Source: Cellvibrionales bacterium (GTDB taxonomy: Bacteria > Pseudomonadota > Gammaproteobacteria > Pseudomonadales > JAHEIH01). Taken from it: a stretch of 64,000 nucleotides of DNA. Position numbers and translations under genes: made by a program. The DNA is taken from NCBI GenBank assembly GCA_024639455.1, contig JAHEIH010000004.1:161371-225370 (forward strand). Reading direction: 5' to 3'. Positions within the stretch are counted from its first letter, which is position 1, and each line of letters starts with the position of its first letter. The notes below the pieces were generated by a model. The model was not told where the DNA came from. It made no database searches and was given only the letters and a program-made list of their open reading frames with translations. Below are positions 41,723-60,123 of this stretch, in pieces.

Positions 41723-42337
41723 TTAAGGGTTGTTACTGCCAAAAAACGCGAGGTATTTTTCGCGCCGGGCGCTGTCGACCAGGAGCGGTCTGTCGTAGGA
41801 AGGGTCGTTGCGATCGCGCGATGGGCCACGCCCCTCGTTCATAAATTGTTTTTCAGCTGCGCTCAGCAGGTGGGCGGTAGACGTCATGCTGCTGAGATCG
41901 TCAATGTTGGGGATGTGGTCTAGGTTAGACCAGTCACGCAGGGTGACTCGCGCAGCAATGCGCCACTCGCCGTCGCGTTTTTCGAGTCGGTCGATGTAGC
42001 GACCGCCGCCAATGGTCAATGGTTTGCCGCGTCGGTTCATGGCGGTAAACATGAAGTAGGTTTCACAGTGGGCGGTGTCACCCTCTAGTTCACAGCTGTG
42101 GTTAAGCAGGCAGTGCTGATGAGATTGCTGCGCATGACTGTGCATGTCTAGTGCCCAGTCGACAAACTCCTTGGCATTGCCGACAAACTTGCCGTGTTCA
42201 TCGATACAGTCTGGGTGGAAGGCTGACAAAATCAGTTCACGGTCGAATCGATCGACACCGCGAGCATAGCGGTGCAAGCACTGACGTATCTTTTCGCGAT
42301 CCCACAATTCCTGGATCATTTCTTCACTACTAGGCAT
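41723..42337 (-). CDS. NTF2-like (SnoaL_4-type) protein, paralogue A
   Basis: Shares RYARGVDR.D..L....FH.D..D.H, ETYF and GRYIDRLEKRDGEWRI with two other ORFs in this window. Confidence 0.75.
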   Translation of the reverse strand: MPSSEEMIQELWDREKIRQCLHRYARGVDRFDRELILSAFHPDCIDEHGKFVGNAKEFVDWALDMHSHAQQSHQHCLLNHSCELEGDTAHCETYFMFTAMNRRGKPLTIGGGRYIDRLEKRDGEWRIAARVTLRDWSNLDHIPNIDDLSSMTSTAHLLSAAEKQFMNEGRGPSRDRNDPSYDRPLLVDSARREKYLAFFGSNNP

Positions 42338-42348
42338 GGCGCTGTACT

Positions 42349-43527
42349 CTAAATTATCGCGCTGCTTTTCAGCGCTTCGATCTCATCTGGGCTAAAGCCG
42401 TAATCAGCGAGGATTTCCTCGCTGTGCTCGCCTAATAATGGCGGGCGCGACAACGCTACCGAACCCTGTGATAGTCGCGCTGGCGGCGGCACGATGGGGA
42501 CAGGGTAGGAGTCAGGGAAGGGAACGTCAGACATAAATGTGTCGCGCAGGCCGAGTGAGTTACCCATGACTTCTTGGGGTGACAGCACAGGGCCACAACC
42601 GATGTTGGCATCACTCAGAATCTGGATACACTCATCGCGATGTTTGTCGGCACACCAGGCTTGCATGATGGCACTGAGCTCTTCGCCGTGCTCGCCGCGC
42701 GTGTCGTCGCTGGCGAAGCGAGGGTCTTCTAATAAATCGGGGCGACCGATGAGCTTGCACCAACGCACAAAGACTTTCTGTCCGATCACTTGCATGATGA
42801 ACCAGCCATCGCGCGCGCGGAAGATATCCGACGGGCTCGACATCGGGCTACGGTTGCCGGTGGGCTCACGGTGACGGAAGCCAGTGGCTTCCTCCATCAG
42901 AATTTGGTTGGTGATGTTGAGGGAGGTGCCCACCAATGACGCCTGCACATGGCTGCCTTCACCGTTGCGCATTTTGCCAATGATGGCGGCCAGGGTGCCG
43001 TAGGCGAGTGATAATGAAGTGGAAAAGTCGATCGGTGCGGTGGCAGCACGGGTCGGTTTGCCCGGTTCACCGGTGAGATAAATCGCCCCGCTGACCGCCT
43101 GGCCAACGCCGTCGAAGCCAATCTTTTCCGACATAGGACCCTCGGTCCCATAGGCGGTTGCGGTGGTCAAGATAATATCGGGTTTGATGGCCTTTAATGT
43201 GTCGTAATCCAAACCAAAGTGTTTAAGTGCGCTGGGGGAATAGTTGGCGATCACGACATCGGCTTGGGCGATCATACGGCGCATCACCTCACGGCCCTCT
43301 GCTGAGGTCATGGCCAGTGATAGGCAACGCTTGCCACCGTTGCACTGCAGGTACTGGGCACCTTCGCCGTGTGCCGTTACCGGCATCAAAAAACGATCGT
43401 CTTCGCCCTTAGGGCGTTCCACTCGAATCACGTCAGCGCCAAAACTGGCCAGAATATGCGCGCAGTAGGGACCAGCTATCCAGCGTCCGAAATCAAGTAC
43501 CTTGATACCTTCTAAAATGCCGTTCAT
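42349..43527 (-). CDS. family III (CaiB/BaiF) CoA-transferase, paralogue A
   Basis: N-terminus LEGIKVLDFGRWIAGPYCAHILASFGADVIRVE. Start at the ATG at 43527 (a GTG at 43533 is also open). Confidence 0.85.
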   Translation of the reverse strand: MNGILEGIKVLDFGRWIAGPYCAHILASFGADVIRVERPKGEDDRFLMPVTAHGEGAQYLQCNGGKRCLSLAMTSAEGREVMRRMIAQADVVIANYSPSALKHFGLDYDTLKAIKPDIILTTATAYGTEGPMSEKIGFDGVGQAVSGAIYLTGEPGKPTRAATAPIDFSTSLSLAYGTLAAIIGKMRNGEGSHVQASLVGTSLNITNQILMEEATGFRHREPTGNRSPMSSPSDIFRARDGWFIMQVIGQKVFVRWCKLIGRPDLLEDPRFASDDTRGEHGEELSAIMQAWCADKHRDECIQILSDANIGCGPVLSPQEVMGNSLGLRDTFMSDVPFPDSYPVPIVPPPARLSQGSVALSRPPLLGEHSEEILADYGFSPDEIEALKSSAII

Positions 43528-43536
43528 GGTCACGCC

Positions 43537-58676: not shown

Positions 58677-58691
58677 TTGAGAGAGATAACT

Positions 58692-59546
58692 ATGGCGATT
58701 GATATCGCAAACGCGCGCAGTTTTTTGTTTGTTCCGGCAACGCGCCCGGAGCGTTTTAGCAAAGCCTTGGAGAGTGGCGCCGATTGGGTGGTGATCGATC
58801 TTGAGGATGCTGTCGCCGCCGCTGACAAAGACCGTGCACGGGAAAATCTCGCTGACGGGTTCTCTGGGCTAAGCGCCGTGCAGCGCGCACGCGTATTAGT
58901 ACGTATCAACCCCACCGATAGCGAGTTTCACGACGCCGATTTAGCGCTGTTGGCGGTGTTGGTGGAAGAGGGTCTGCGCGCGGTGATGGTGCCCAAAGCA
59001 GCGGTGGCGGCGGAAATTCAGCGCATAGCCGATCGTCTTAGCGAAGACATTGAGGTGGTGGCTTTGGTGGAGTCGCTAGCGGGGGTAGATGCCTTGGATT
59101 ATCTAGCCAAACTACCTAGCGTGGTGCGCTTTGCCTTTGGTCATCTCGATTTTCAGGTCGATATGGGCATGAACTGCGATGCCGATGAGGAAGCCTTGAT
59201 CCCGGTTCGTTTTGCCATCGCGGCGGCATCTCGTCGCGCCAATATGGCGCCGCCCATCGATGGCGTAACCGTCGATACCAAAGACCTCAGCCTTATTCAA
59301 CGGCACATCGACCGAGCCTTGGGATTTGGTTTTGCGGGTAAGTTGTGTATTCATCCTGCCCAAGTGGGCACGGTTAATCGCGCCTTTACCCCTAGCCGAT
59401 CCGACATCGAATGGGCGCAACGAGTGGTGGCAGCTGACGCGCACGGCGGTGCGGTATTTAGTCTCGATGGCAAGATGGTCGACATGCCGGTAATCAGCAA
59501 GGCCAGGCACATCTTGGCAAAAGCGCAGAGTTTTGAGGAGGCCTAA
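58692..59546 (+). CDS. HpcH/CitE-like acyl-CoA lyase, paralogue B
   Basis: RSFLFVPATRPERFSKALESGADWVVIDLEDAV. Start at the ATG at 58692. Confidence 0.8.
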   Translation: MAIDIANARSFLFVPATRPERFSKALESGADWVVIDLEDAVAAADKDRARENLADGFSGLSAVQRARVLVRINPTDSEFHDADLALLAVLVEEGLRAVMVPKAAVAAEIQRIADRLSEDIEVVALVESLAGVDALDYLAKLPSVVRFAFGHLDFQVDMGMNCDADEEALIPVRFAIAAASRRANMAPPIDGVTVDTKDLSLIQRHIDRALGFGFAGKLCIHPAQVGTVNRAFTPSRSDIEWAQRVVAADAHGGAVFSLDGKMVDMPVISKARHILAKAQSFEEA

Positions 59547-59547
59547 T

Positions 59548-60123
59548 ATGACGCAAGCTAACGGAATTCAAACGCAATTAGACGCGCTGGCGGCTGAAGT
59601 CACACGGCTGCGCGATATGGATGAGATCCGCCAAGTGATGTACGCCTACGCCCGAGGTGTCGATCGCGCAGACCAGGCCTTAATCGCCCCGACGTTTCAC
59701 GACGATGCCTACGACGACCACGGTAATTTTAAGGGTGACAAAGCCACCACTTTGGCAGCCCTCAATGCCAGCAGTAAGAATCCCGCGACAACCGCCTCGT
59801 TCCATCACTTGGGCAACATATTGATTGATTTACAGGGCGATCACGCCAAGGTCGAGACCTACTTCATGGCGGTGCAACGTAAGGAAGAAGAGGGTAAGAC
59901 GTATACTCGAACCCGCGCCGGGCGCTACCTCGATCGTTTTGAAAAGCGCGCCGGAGTGTGGGCGGTGAGTCACCGTGTGGTGGTCGATGACTGGAGCCGT
60001 TTAGATGAGGTCGTGCAAATGGCGCGTGAGGTAGGGGCCGAGAATTATCATGCGACAAGAACACCTGCCGACCCCTCCTATAGACTGCATGATTTTGTCT
60101 CGAGACGAAAACAGTCTGAGTAA
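59548..60123 (+). CDS. NTF2-like (SnoaL_4-type) protein, paralogue C
   Basis: YAYARGVDRAD...FHDDAYDDH, ETYF and GRYLDRFEKRAGVWAV. The ATG at 59548 follows GAGGAGG and lies 1 nt after the lyase stop. Confidence 0.75.
   Translation: MTQANGIQTQLDALAAEVTRLRDMDEIRQVMYAYARGVDRADQALIAPTFHDDAYDDHGNFKGDKATTLAALNASSKNPATTASFHHLGNILIDLQGDHAKVETYFMAVQRKEEEGKTYTRTRAGRYLDRFEKRAGVWAVSHRVVVDDWSRLDEVVQMAREVGAENYHATRTPADPSYRLHDFVSRRKQSE

Follow-up and report, generated by a model that had tools for sequence, protein, structure and literature searches.

Three paralogous SnoaL_4 proteins in an acyl-CoA gene cluster of a Cellvibrionales bacterium: candidate cofactor-independent acid-base enzymes of the NTF2 fold

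Enzymes of the NTF2 fold carry out a range of reactions, with members such as the dehydratases scytalone dehydratase (SD), BaiE, Hsh2, and SteC, the dehydrohalogenase LinA, the deformylating lyase LdpA, and a decarboxylase. This report concerns three genes, here called N1, N2, and N3, whose products are predicted to belong to this group and which lie within 64,000 nucleotides of DNA from a Cellvibrionales bacterium (contig JAHEIH010000004.1, positions 161,371 to 225,370 of the forward strand). This whole stretch, with a GC content of 53.5%, will be called the window, and coordinates are counted from its first letter.

Regarding the best described relatives, BaiE and BaiI of the Clostridium scindens bai operon are members of the Pfam family SnoaL_4, and the substrate of BaiE can be a CoA ester (PMC10382948). 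LinA, the gamma-hexachlorocyclohexane dehydrochlorinase, forms a trimeric cone-shaped alpha+beta barrel with a C-terminal segment that runs across subunits; its catalytic dyad, D25-H73, and the residues of its pocket have been published, and in SD the C-terminal region covers the active site (PMC3507683). Pairs made of a short-chain dehydrogenase/reductase (SDR) and an NTF2 dehydratase have several precedents, namely BaiA/BaiE (PMC10382948), Hsh2 of Sphingobium sp. Chol11 (PMC12175502), and SteA/SteB/SteC of Comamonas testosteroni TA441, where SteC acts after the SDRs SteA and SteB on steroid-derived acids as CoA esters (10.1101/2025.11.20.689525). In the literature searched, NTF2 dehydratases of CoA-linked catabolism are described for steroids only, and no SnoaL/NTF2 protein is linked to itaconate, mesaconyl-CoA, or citramalyl-CoA metabolism; the remark in the initial annotation of the window that an NTF2 enzyme in short-chain acyl-CoA/dicarboxylate modules is not a described component therefore stands.

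Our reading, to which we give an even chance, is that N1, N2, and N3 are anciently diverged paralogues of a SnoaL_4 subfamily of the NTF2 fold, most likely cofactor-independent acid-base enzymes of the BaiE/LinA/SD type. They are probably real enzymes with three different substrates, and a cofactor-free lyase or isomerase reaction via an enol(ate), most probably that of a dehydratase or Delta-isomerase, is favoured. From homology, fold, residue conservation, and gene linkage, which were observed, we infer catalysis, reaction type, trimeric state, and substrates. The three genes are as follows.

41723..42337, minus strand: N1, SnoaL_4 NTF2-like protein of 204 aa with a C-terminal extension of ~70 aa (PF13577, 83 bits)
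46824..47384, plus strand: N2, SnoaL_4 NTF2-like protein of 186 aa (PF13577, 73.5 bits)
59548..60123, plus strand: N3, SnoaL_4 NTF2-like protein of 191 aa, final gene of a long operon (PF13577, 89.4 bits)

All three matches span positions 1-125 of the 126 in the Pfam hidden Markov model (HMM), whose gathering score is 24 bits. The start of N2 is taken as the ATG at 46824, which has GAGGGA ahead of it and seems a better candidate than another ATG at 46785. Pairwise identity amounts to 33% for N1-N2, 35% for N1-N3, and 40% for N2-N3, and the alignment of the three holds 43 invariant columns. The initial annotation had described three open reading frames (ORFs) with a common signature at these coordinates, and each of its elements, YARGVDRxD, (F/Y)HxDxxD(D/E)H, ETY(F/Y), and GRY(I/L)DR(L/F)ExRxGxW, was indeed found in N1, N2, and N3. 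The C-terminal motif, first written as (R/T)-x-x-DP-(S/L)-Y, is present as well, with the Arg spacing off by one, and is best given as R-x3-D-P-x-Y (R174, D178, P179, and Y181 in N1 numbering). A profile of N1-N3 run against the six frames of the window found no fourth copy (next match, E=0.7). Together, the three ORFs, their motifs, and their gene context are far beyond chance.

Other families gave little. No NCBIfam model matched N1, N2, or N3, nor did the Pfam HMMs for PF00866 (Ring_hydroxyl_B), for scytalone dehydratase (PF02982), or for limonene-epoxide hydrolase. Against the ketosteroid isomerase and SnoaL_2 families nothing rose above the gathering score (for N2, SnoaL_2 reached 24.4 bits vs 27), and DUF4440 remained sub-threshold.

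AlphaFold2 models of N1 (pLDDT 92.9, pTM 0.88) and N3 (pLDDT 89.8, pTM 0.85) show the order of secondary-structure elements expected for an alpha+beta barrel with the shape of a cone, that is, three helices followed by a curved antiparallel sheet. With Foldseek both models retrieve the same solved structures, at E values from 1e-10 to 1e-6: the putative scytalone dehydratase 3ef8, Rv3472, BaiE (4leh/4l8o/4l8p), LinA (3a76/3s5c), LdpA (8abt), and SD (4std). The top matches are 3ef8, Rv3472, BaiE, and LinA for N1, and 3ef8, LinA, and BaiE for N3, which additionally retrieves the NTF2-fold gallate decarboxylase 7kd9. Target-normalised TM-scores against 3ef8, LinA, and BaiE lie between 0.66 and 0.84 with a probability of 1.00, at sequence identities to the structural matches of 12-23%. 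A profile search of the PDB found no close solved structure, the best being the uncharacterised 2rfr (E 5e-5), with BaiE at E 0.02-0.6. In hhalign comparisons based on a 63-sequence family profile, LinA scored a probability of 96% (E 1e-8), BaiE 93% (E 3e-7), and SD 18%; the reference sequences used for LinA, BaiE, and SD had been checked against the PDB and are identical or ~97% identical to 3a76, 4leh, and 1std. Sequence profiles and models thus place N1-N3 in the catalytic SD/LinA/BaiE branch of the NTF2 fold. This agrees with the BaiE-like fold proposed at the outset.

The profile alignments also indicate which residues might matter. On BaiE, Y24, R26, D29, and H75 correspond to Y30, R32, D35, and H83; on LinA, D29, H75, and R130 correspond to D25, H73, and R129, and G112/Y114 to A111/F113; R30 aligns with LinA K26, which forms a salt bridge between subunits, a hint towards a homotrimer. 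The SD alignment (probability 18%) equates D29 with D31, H75 with H85, H48/F51 with Y50/F53, and G112/Y114 with S129/N131. In the work of Bhowmik et al. 2016, Tyr30, Asp35, and His83 are reported to be catalytic residues of BaiE. Because D29, H75, and their companions align with these three and with the LinA dyad, a catalytic role for them is likely. The initial annotation had proposed checking whether the polar residues of the H-x-D...D-x-H cluster face the pocket or the surface; by homology mapping, side-chain periodicity and the SD alignment put D46 and H48, in strand 40-48, towards the pocket, and these are the only two placed. The LinA and SD alignments disagree on the register of this strand, leaving H41 and D43 without a placement.

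The family to which N1-N3 belong is large. A word-indexed search gave more than 4,245 matches, and an index-free search of 1.84 billion representatives (clusters at 50% identity) gave 7,689 at E ≤ 1e-3 and 589 at E ≤ 1e-30; the databases label these proteins 'nuclear transport factor 2 family protein' or give 'SnoaL-like domain'. Among the groups with members are Rhodobacterales, Sphingomonadaceae, Burkholderiaceae, Myxococcota, and Mycobacteriales, and the subfamily itself spreads over Alpha-, Beta-, and Gammaproteobacteria, Myxococcota, and Actinomycetota. The best 120 database matches comprise 99 of N1 type, 17 of N3 type, and 4 of N2 type, which makes N1 the widespread form; its closest named orthologues come from Rhodobacterales, and the N2 orthologues (P0004, P0047, P0068, and P0094) are 68-91% identical. 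Since N1, N2, and N3 each have their own orthologues, they are old paralogues. Tandem fusions with two or three NTF2 domains account for 63 of the 150 top representatives (P0121-P0270), as in P0121, with three copies in 523 aa, and such tandem copies fit a pseudo-oligomeric architecture.

The 80 genome loci used below for gene context had been retrieved with YARGVDRxD and FHxDxxDD as patterns, so that conservation of both motifs there is circular; motif conservation was re-tested on the index-free representatives (240 domains). Among the 87 single-domain representatives, D29, R30, D32, H41, D43, D46, H48, H75, E92, Y94, R113, Y114, D116, W125, and R130 are kept in 80-87. A core of Y24, D29, H75, R113, Y114, D116, and R130 persists in nearly all 240 domains, tandem copies included, with D29 in 229 and H75 in 230 of them. 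Positions 41/43/46/48 vary in the tandem-domain proteins and are often hydrophobic (HGVF, HDVY, TDLY, and others). The family-wide machinery would accordingly be an Asp-His dyad, D29-H75, with Tyr and Arg. Because it varies in related subfamilies, the H-x-D...D-x-H cluster behaves as a subfamily-specific specificity element, which probably lines the substrate site. The initial argument that a conserved His/Asp cluster speaks for catalysis thus keeps its conclusion, a catalytic role being likely, and changes its residues, since the canonical pair is D29-H75 rather than the more conspicuous cluster.

Comparison of the orthologue groups (N1, n=98; N2, n=5; N3, n=16) found the catalytic positions invariant over all three and seven positions corresponding to LinA substrate contacts fixed differently in each group.

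Position 66: N1 H; N2 R; N3 Q/R/K
Position 70: N1 H/Q; N2 V; N3 T
Position 73: N1 H; N2 S; N3 S
Position 97: N1 F; N2 S; N3 A
Position 110: N1 G; N2 S; N3 R
Position 132: N1 T; N2 V; N3 V
Position 134: N1 R; N2 L; N3 D

This is the signature of paralogous enzymes, and such a pattern of residues points to the same chemistry performed on three different substrates.

The genes around N1-N3 form a minus-strand operon, a plus-strand run, and two SDR genes between them, with a medium-chain dehydrogenase/reductase (MDR) and acyl-CoA dehydrogenases (ACADs) among the products.

40771..41709, minus strand: PIG3/quinone-oxidoreductase-type MDR, 312 aa (Pfam ADH_N and ADH_zinc_N_2)
42349..43533, minus strand: family III (CaiB/BaiF-type) CoA-transferase (PF02515, 355 bits; no NCBIfam equivalog at cut-off)
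43537..44916, minus strand: MmgE/PrpD-family protein, first gene of the minus-strand operon (PF03972 and PF19305)
45033..45833, plus strand: SDR oxidoreductase (Pfam)
45847..46629, minus strand: SDR oxidoreductase, divergent from N2 (Pfam)
47495..48283, plus strand: crotonase
48296..49237, plus strand: CitE-like lyase
49258..49731, plus strand: RipB/Ich-like MaoC hydratase
49747..51732, plus strand: acetyl-CoA-synthetase-like AMP ligase
51742..52902, plus strand: ACAD
52914..54125, plus strand: thiolase
54129..55358, plus strand: family III CoA-transferase closest to mesaconyl-CoA C1-C4 transferase, Mct (TIGR04253, 428 bits, cut-off 725)
55375..57021, plus strand: 548-aa ACAD with an N-terminal ~160 aa that has no Pfam match
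57047..57796, plus strand: FabG-like SDR
57807..58676, plus strand: double-hotdog hydratase
58677..59546, plus strand: CitE/RipC-like (Ccl-like) lyase
59535..59541, plus strand: ribosome-binding site of N3, GAGGAGG

The minus-strand operon runs in the order MmgE/PrpD, family III CoA-transferase, N1, MDR. N1 starts 11 nt past the stop of the CoA-transferase gene, so that one NTF2 gene does follow a CaiB-type transferase, as had been noted, with the minus strand left unstated. The MDR gene has its true start at the ATG at ~41709 (MQAVTFNEFGGPEVL...), 13 nt past the N1 stop and preceded by AAGGA; the mechanically called ORF, 40771-41829 on the minus strand, overlaps N1 by ~100 nt. Its NCBIfam matches, to quinone_pig3 and to YhdH/acryloyl-CoA-reductase-like models, are all below cut-off. 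The two SDR genes separate this operon from N2, and the SDR-SDR-N2 arrangement recurs in relatives L085 and L086. N2 lies 110 nt upstream of 12 close-packed genes (gaps 0-25 nt) that end at N3, which bears out its earlier placement ahead of a 13-gene operon, the count being 13 with N2 included. The reported coupling of the third gene to a CitE-like lyase is also as described: the TAA of the lyase occupies 59544-59546, the ATG of N3 follows 1 nt later at 59548, and the GAGGAGG lies just ahead. Scans for promoters and terminators around N2 and after N3 returned nothing above shuffled expectation.

Equivalog-level scores in this cluster all fall under the NCBIfam cut-offs: 123 bits (340) for RipB/Ich, 177 (375) for RipC/Ccl, and 428 (725) for Mct. 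'Small, probably branched, dicarboxylate/acyl-CoA catabolism' is a fair description of it. As side observations, the Mct-like transferase (54129-55358) is accompanied by two MaoC-type hydratases and two CitE-type lyases (48296-49731 and 57807-59546), and proteins of these three kinds make up the mesaconyl-CoA/citramalyl-CoA route described for the 3-hydroxypropionate bi-cycle and itaconate degradation. The size of the long ACAD is kept in relatives L085, L088, and L090 (547-559 aa).

Moving outward, just upstream of the cluster there is a gene for the pyridoxal-phosphate-dependent aspartate 1-decarboxylase PanP (39121-40758, plus strand; NCBIfam equivalog with 905 bits against a cut-off of 606), together with a LysR gene (37989-38942). 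Type-B carboxylesterases (COesterase) recur by these clusters, in the window at 31459-33093 (plus strand), in L082 at 14555-16153, and in L088 at 2765-5902, which hints that the pathway substrate may arrive as an ester. Beyond N3, an esterase-family gene (60186-61352) is followed downstream by two adjoining minus-strand ORFs of 282 and 508 aa (61279-63653), for which Pfam gave nothing at E ≤ 1e-3. The first half of the window is occupied by a glycan-utilisation region (3135-29935) with a TonB-dependent receptor (17241-20387) beside a Trp-halogenase-family gene (13931-15412), a GH3 gene (7491-9839), a GH78 alpha-L-rhamnosidase gene (25323-28886), LacI regulators, GFO/IDH/MocA and glucose-methanol-choline (GMC) oxidoreductases, and a molybdopterin oxidoreductase subunit. 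PanP, the receptor with its Trp-halogenase-family neighbour, and the rhamnosidase hint at a marine proteobacterium.

The 80 loci, mostly 40-50% relatives of N1, show how far this context extends. A CaiB gene is adjacent in 2 of them and within four genes in 7, CitE is within four genes in none, and 10 loci carry CaiB or CitE at any place within +-10 kb. By contrast, 42 loci have a redox enzyme as direct neighbour and 63 have one no more than two genes away, the latter covering 12 of the 14 sequence groups. In 16 loci a KstD-like flavoprotein (760 bits to 3-ketosteroid Delta1-dehydrogenase, with a further resemblance to ChcC1/ChcC2) lies directly upstream on the same strand. Other recurrent partners are PIG3/acryloyl-CoA-reductase-like MDRs, SDRs, AcrC-like ACADs, and FabK-like reductases, besides cytochrome P450, Rieske, pyrroloquinoline quinone (PQQ), GMC, aldo-keto reductase, and aldehyde dehydrogenase enzymes. 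Most of the frequent partners form or reduce a C=C conjugated to a carbonyl, or create that carbonyl.

Among the orthologues of N1 with at least 70% identity and downstream sequence (L002, L003, L004, L045, L085, and the window), every one has an MDR directly downstream, those of L002-L004 and L045 being 53-74% identical to the window MDR, and CaiB adjoins N1 in the window and in L001 alone. N1 has its conserved partner in the downstream PIG3/quinone-oxidoreductase-type MDR, not in CaiB. For N3, an 81% orthologue ends the same operon in L090, in the order SDR, double hotdog, HpcH lyase, N3. A more distant relative (L085/L088) carries all three paralogues on one 49.6-kb contig together with PrpD, CaiB, HpcH, MaoC, ACADs, thiolase, SDRs, and MDR, in a different gene order. 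In L082-L084 an N3-type gene has an SDR and another SnoaL_4 gene beside it and faces a hotdog-lyase pair; in L081 one is near PrpD, CaiB, HpcH, and a tripartite ATP-independent periplasmic (TRAP) transporter, and in L091 one stands among SDRs, without CoA enzymes. The association with PrpD, family III CoA-transferase, CitE/HpcH lyase, and MaoC recurs only in the window's own clade, with shuffled order, and what the genes are linked to is the pathway, not any one neighbour. The initial proposal of an NTF2 protein recurring in CoA-transferase/lyase modules thus holds within this clade and not across the family.

Two arrangements deserve mention in their own right. At 9349-10573 of L082, and also in L083 and L084, two different SnoaL_4 genes stand one after the other behind an SDR gene, the second of the two being N3-type and 58% identical, and they face divergent genes for a double-hotdog hydratase and an HpcH lyase. 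In Sphingomonadaceae (L005-L030) a block consists of a GntR regulator, 2-oxoacid dehydrogenase E1 alpha/beta, Rieske alpha, the KstD-like flavoprotein, NTF2, and an MDR or SDR. No published function for this block was found, and a sphingomonad bile-salt proteome paper makes no mention of NTF2 or SnoaL proteins, so that paper does not explain the KstD-like and NTF2 pair.

Considering all this, a lyase or isomerase reading is preferred because N1-N3 keep the Asp-His machinery, because their partners generate or use up conjugated C=C/C=O systems, and because pairs of SDR and NTF2 dehydratase are known. In such a mechanism Asp29 would orient His75, acting as general base or acid, inside a cone-shaped pocket; Tyr24, Tyr114, Asp116, and Arg130 would polarise the carbonyl or carboxylate of the substrate, with Asp46 and His48 near the pocket mouth. 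Removal of a proton next to the carbonyl or thioester would give an enol(ate), which could resolve by loss of a beta or vinylogous hydroxyl (dehydration), by Delta-isomerisation, or, less likely, by decarboxylation. By analogy with LinA, BaiE, and SD, the proteins are probably trimers, and the conserved C-terminal R-x3-DPxY tail may close the pocket. With the same catalytic set and different pocket linings, each copy would act on a different intermediate. Locally, the genes would serve a supercluster for small CoA-activated acids, resembling an extended itaconate/methylsuccinate (branched C5-dicarboxylate) cluster, in which N1, the downstream MDR, and the nearby SDRs could perform a Bai-like sequence: oxidise, dehydrate or isomerise, then reduce the C=C.

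Several points weigh against this reading. Identity to any characterised enzyme is only 12-23%; the pocket placement comes from profile alignments, not coordinates, with the register of strand 40-48 differing between LinA and SD and the SD alignment itself weak. Many SnoaL_4 proteins, some of them possibly non-catalytic, carry Asp and His at these positions, so that both residues could be conserved in part for structural reasons. Both the trimer and the closing of the pocket by the tail are drawn by analogy. The established C5-dicarboxylate routes are not known to need an extra dehydratase or isomerase, which leaves no specific gap for N1-N3.

Among the alternatives, a different class of reaction survives best, although we hold it to be unlikely: epoxide or lactone hydrolysis by an Asp-Arg-Asp site like that of limonene-epoxide hydrolase, non-oxidative decarboxylation as in gallate decarboxylase, or C-C cleavage of the retro-aldol type performed by LdpA. 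In its favour, the residues predicted for the pocket (D29, D46, D116, R130, H48, H75, Y24, Y114) make it unusually polar and recall Asp-Arg-Asp/Tyr sites, and the structural matches include LdpA (8abt-8abw) and gallate decarboxylase (7kd9). Related clusters repeatedly contain carboxylesterases and Amidohydro_2 enzymes, and the family of the MmgE/PrpD neighbours includes enolate-type decarboxylases and isomerases (PMC12290011). However, the limonene-epoxide hydrolase family gives no Pfam match, the best profile matches are LinA and BaiE rather than that enzyme, LdpA, or a decarboxylase, and the partners across the family point to enone/enoyl chemistry.

It is rather unlikely, in our view, that N1-N3 are non-catalytic, that is, ligand-binding or scaffold subunits which assemble with or modulate neighbouring oxidoreductases in the manner of Rieske beta subunits. 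Many NTF2-fold members are non-catalytic, the PDB matches include the Rieske oxygenase beta subunits 3eby, 7q04, and 7vju, and a two-domain relative (P0023) matches PF00866; moreover, most partners are oxidoreductases, frequently encoded right next to the NTF2 gene in the same orientation, and the natural double and triple tandem fusions suggest obligate oligomers. Yet these partners have many unrelated folds (SDR, MDR, KstD-like, ACAD, PQQ, P450), against a single specific interface, some 20 polar residues hardly vary and, wherever mapping is possible, coincide with catalytic or pocket positions in LinA, BaiE, and SD, and the changes specific to each paralogue occur at substrate-contact positions. 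A Rieske beta-subunit role in particular was rejected, as the Pfam scan found no Rieske gene, and hence no alpha subunit, near N1-N3 in the 35-64 kb part of the window, and PF00866 does not match them.

A metal-dependent enzyme, for example a hydratase or an oxygen-using enzyme in which H41/D43/D46/H48 and H75 bind a metal ion, appears very unlikely in place of a cofactor-free lyase. H-x-D-x2-D-x-H does resemble a metal-binding motif, its four residues are kept in 80-85 of the 87 single-domain representatives, and D46 and H48 probably face the pocket beside H75; against this, BaiE, LinA, SD, and LdpA are reportedly cofactor-free, and the tandem-domain relatives that swap the cluster for hydrophobics keep the D29/H75 core, which looks more like substrate tuning than like a lost metal site. 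Finally, a single heterotrimeric enzyme made of N1, N2, and N3 is suggested by the trimers of LinA, BaiE, and SD (PMC3507683; 10.1101/2025.11.20.689525), by at least one further genome in which the three genes, though reshuffled, share a supercluster, by natural three-domain fusions, and by the tandem SnoaL_4 gene pairs of L082-L084, but it is most improbable, and an obligate form was rejected, because N1 is far more widespread than the others and occurs without them in L003, L004, and L081, the three genes sit in different transcription units, and each copy has a complete catalytic set with its own pocket lining.

Returning to cofactor-independent acid-base enzymes, a bolder version is conceivable, although doubtful. 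In it, the 'HDDH' SnoaL_4 clade would represent unrecognised cofactor-free lyases/isomerases for small polar oxo-, hydroxy-, and enoyl-acids and their CoA esters; the three paralogues would stand for three steps missing so far from an undescribed branched-dicarboxylate pathway, and N1, the quinone oxidoreductase, and an SDR would together make up a Bai-like dehydroxylation module ('oxidise, dehydrate, reduce') for a non-steroid substrate. The expected chemistry is that of known NTF2 lyases. Should the family indeed consist of enzymes that act next to dehydrogenases and ene-reductases, knowing its reaction would account for a step that lacks annotation in many catabolic clusters, including lookalikes of steroid-, alicyclic-acid-, and C5-dicarboxylate-degradation clusters. 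The window offers a convenient entry, with identical catalytic residues, different pocket linings, a strictly conserved NTF2-MDR pair, and cultivable relatives, among those carrying the N1-MDR pair being Rhodobacterales bacterium HKCCE2091 and Phaeobacter sp. CAU 1743.

As for the comparison with known systems, BaiE and BaiI share with N1-N3 the SnoaL_4 family and fold, and the stretches Y-x-R-x2-D ... H and Y-x-D-x2-E-K-x-D-G-x-W align residue for residue; the bai operon likewise combines an AMP ligase, an SDR, and a family III CoA-transferase with at least two SnoaL_4 paralogues. On the other hand, identity to BaiE is ~22%, with no orthologue-level similarity, the predicted pockets of N1-N3 are polar, and BaiE lacks both the HxDxxDxH cluster and the 50-70 aa C-terminal tail with DPxY. 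No flavoenzymes of BaiCD/BaiH type were found in the window cluster, whose ACS-like (acetyl-CoA-synthetase-like) ligase, CitE lyases, and Mct-like transferase suit small acids rather than steroids. SteC and Hsh2, compared by description, are also NTF2/SnoaL-type dehydratases of aerobic catabolism; their substrates are steroid rings, whereas the window cluster shows no sign of steroid handling.

LinA is the best profile-profile match, with its D25-H73 and R129 equivalent to D29, H75, and R130. It differs in sequence (17-18% identity), in eliminating HCl from a xenobiotic with no acyl-CoA context, and in its hydrophobic pocket (W42, I44, L64, F68, L96, I109, F113), where N1-N3 have polar or small residues: H/R/K66, Q/V/T70, F/S/A97, G/S/R110, and Y114. 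SD shares the fold, and its D31, H85, Y50, and F53 correspond to D29, H75, H48, and F51; Y30, H110, S129, and N131 of this enzyme of fungal melanin biosynthesis are not kept in N1-N3, which, as said, do not match PF02982.

With respect to pathways, the itaconate/methylsuccinate cluster, composed of Ict, Ich, Ccl, methylsuccinyl-CoA dehydrogenase, and a MmgE/PrpD member that serves as the methylsuccinate isomerase, has its families represented in the window (PMC12290011). The families in common are MmgE/PrpD, family III CoA-transferase, ACAD, RipB/Ich-like MaoC, and RipC/Ccl-like CitE, all below equivalog cut-offs. The cluster of the window is much larger, with a thiolase, SDRs, a crotonase, the ACS-like ligase, and the Mct-like transferase, and it includes the three NTF2 proteins and the MDR, which are not part of the itaconate cluster as described. 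Set beside these systems, N1-N3 are an uncharacterised form of a known kind of enzyme, with neither a new fold nor a new principle, in a new metabolic setting.

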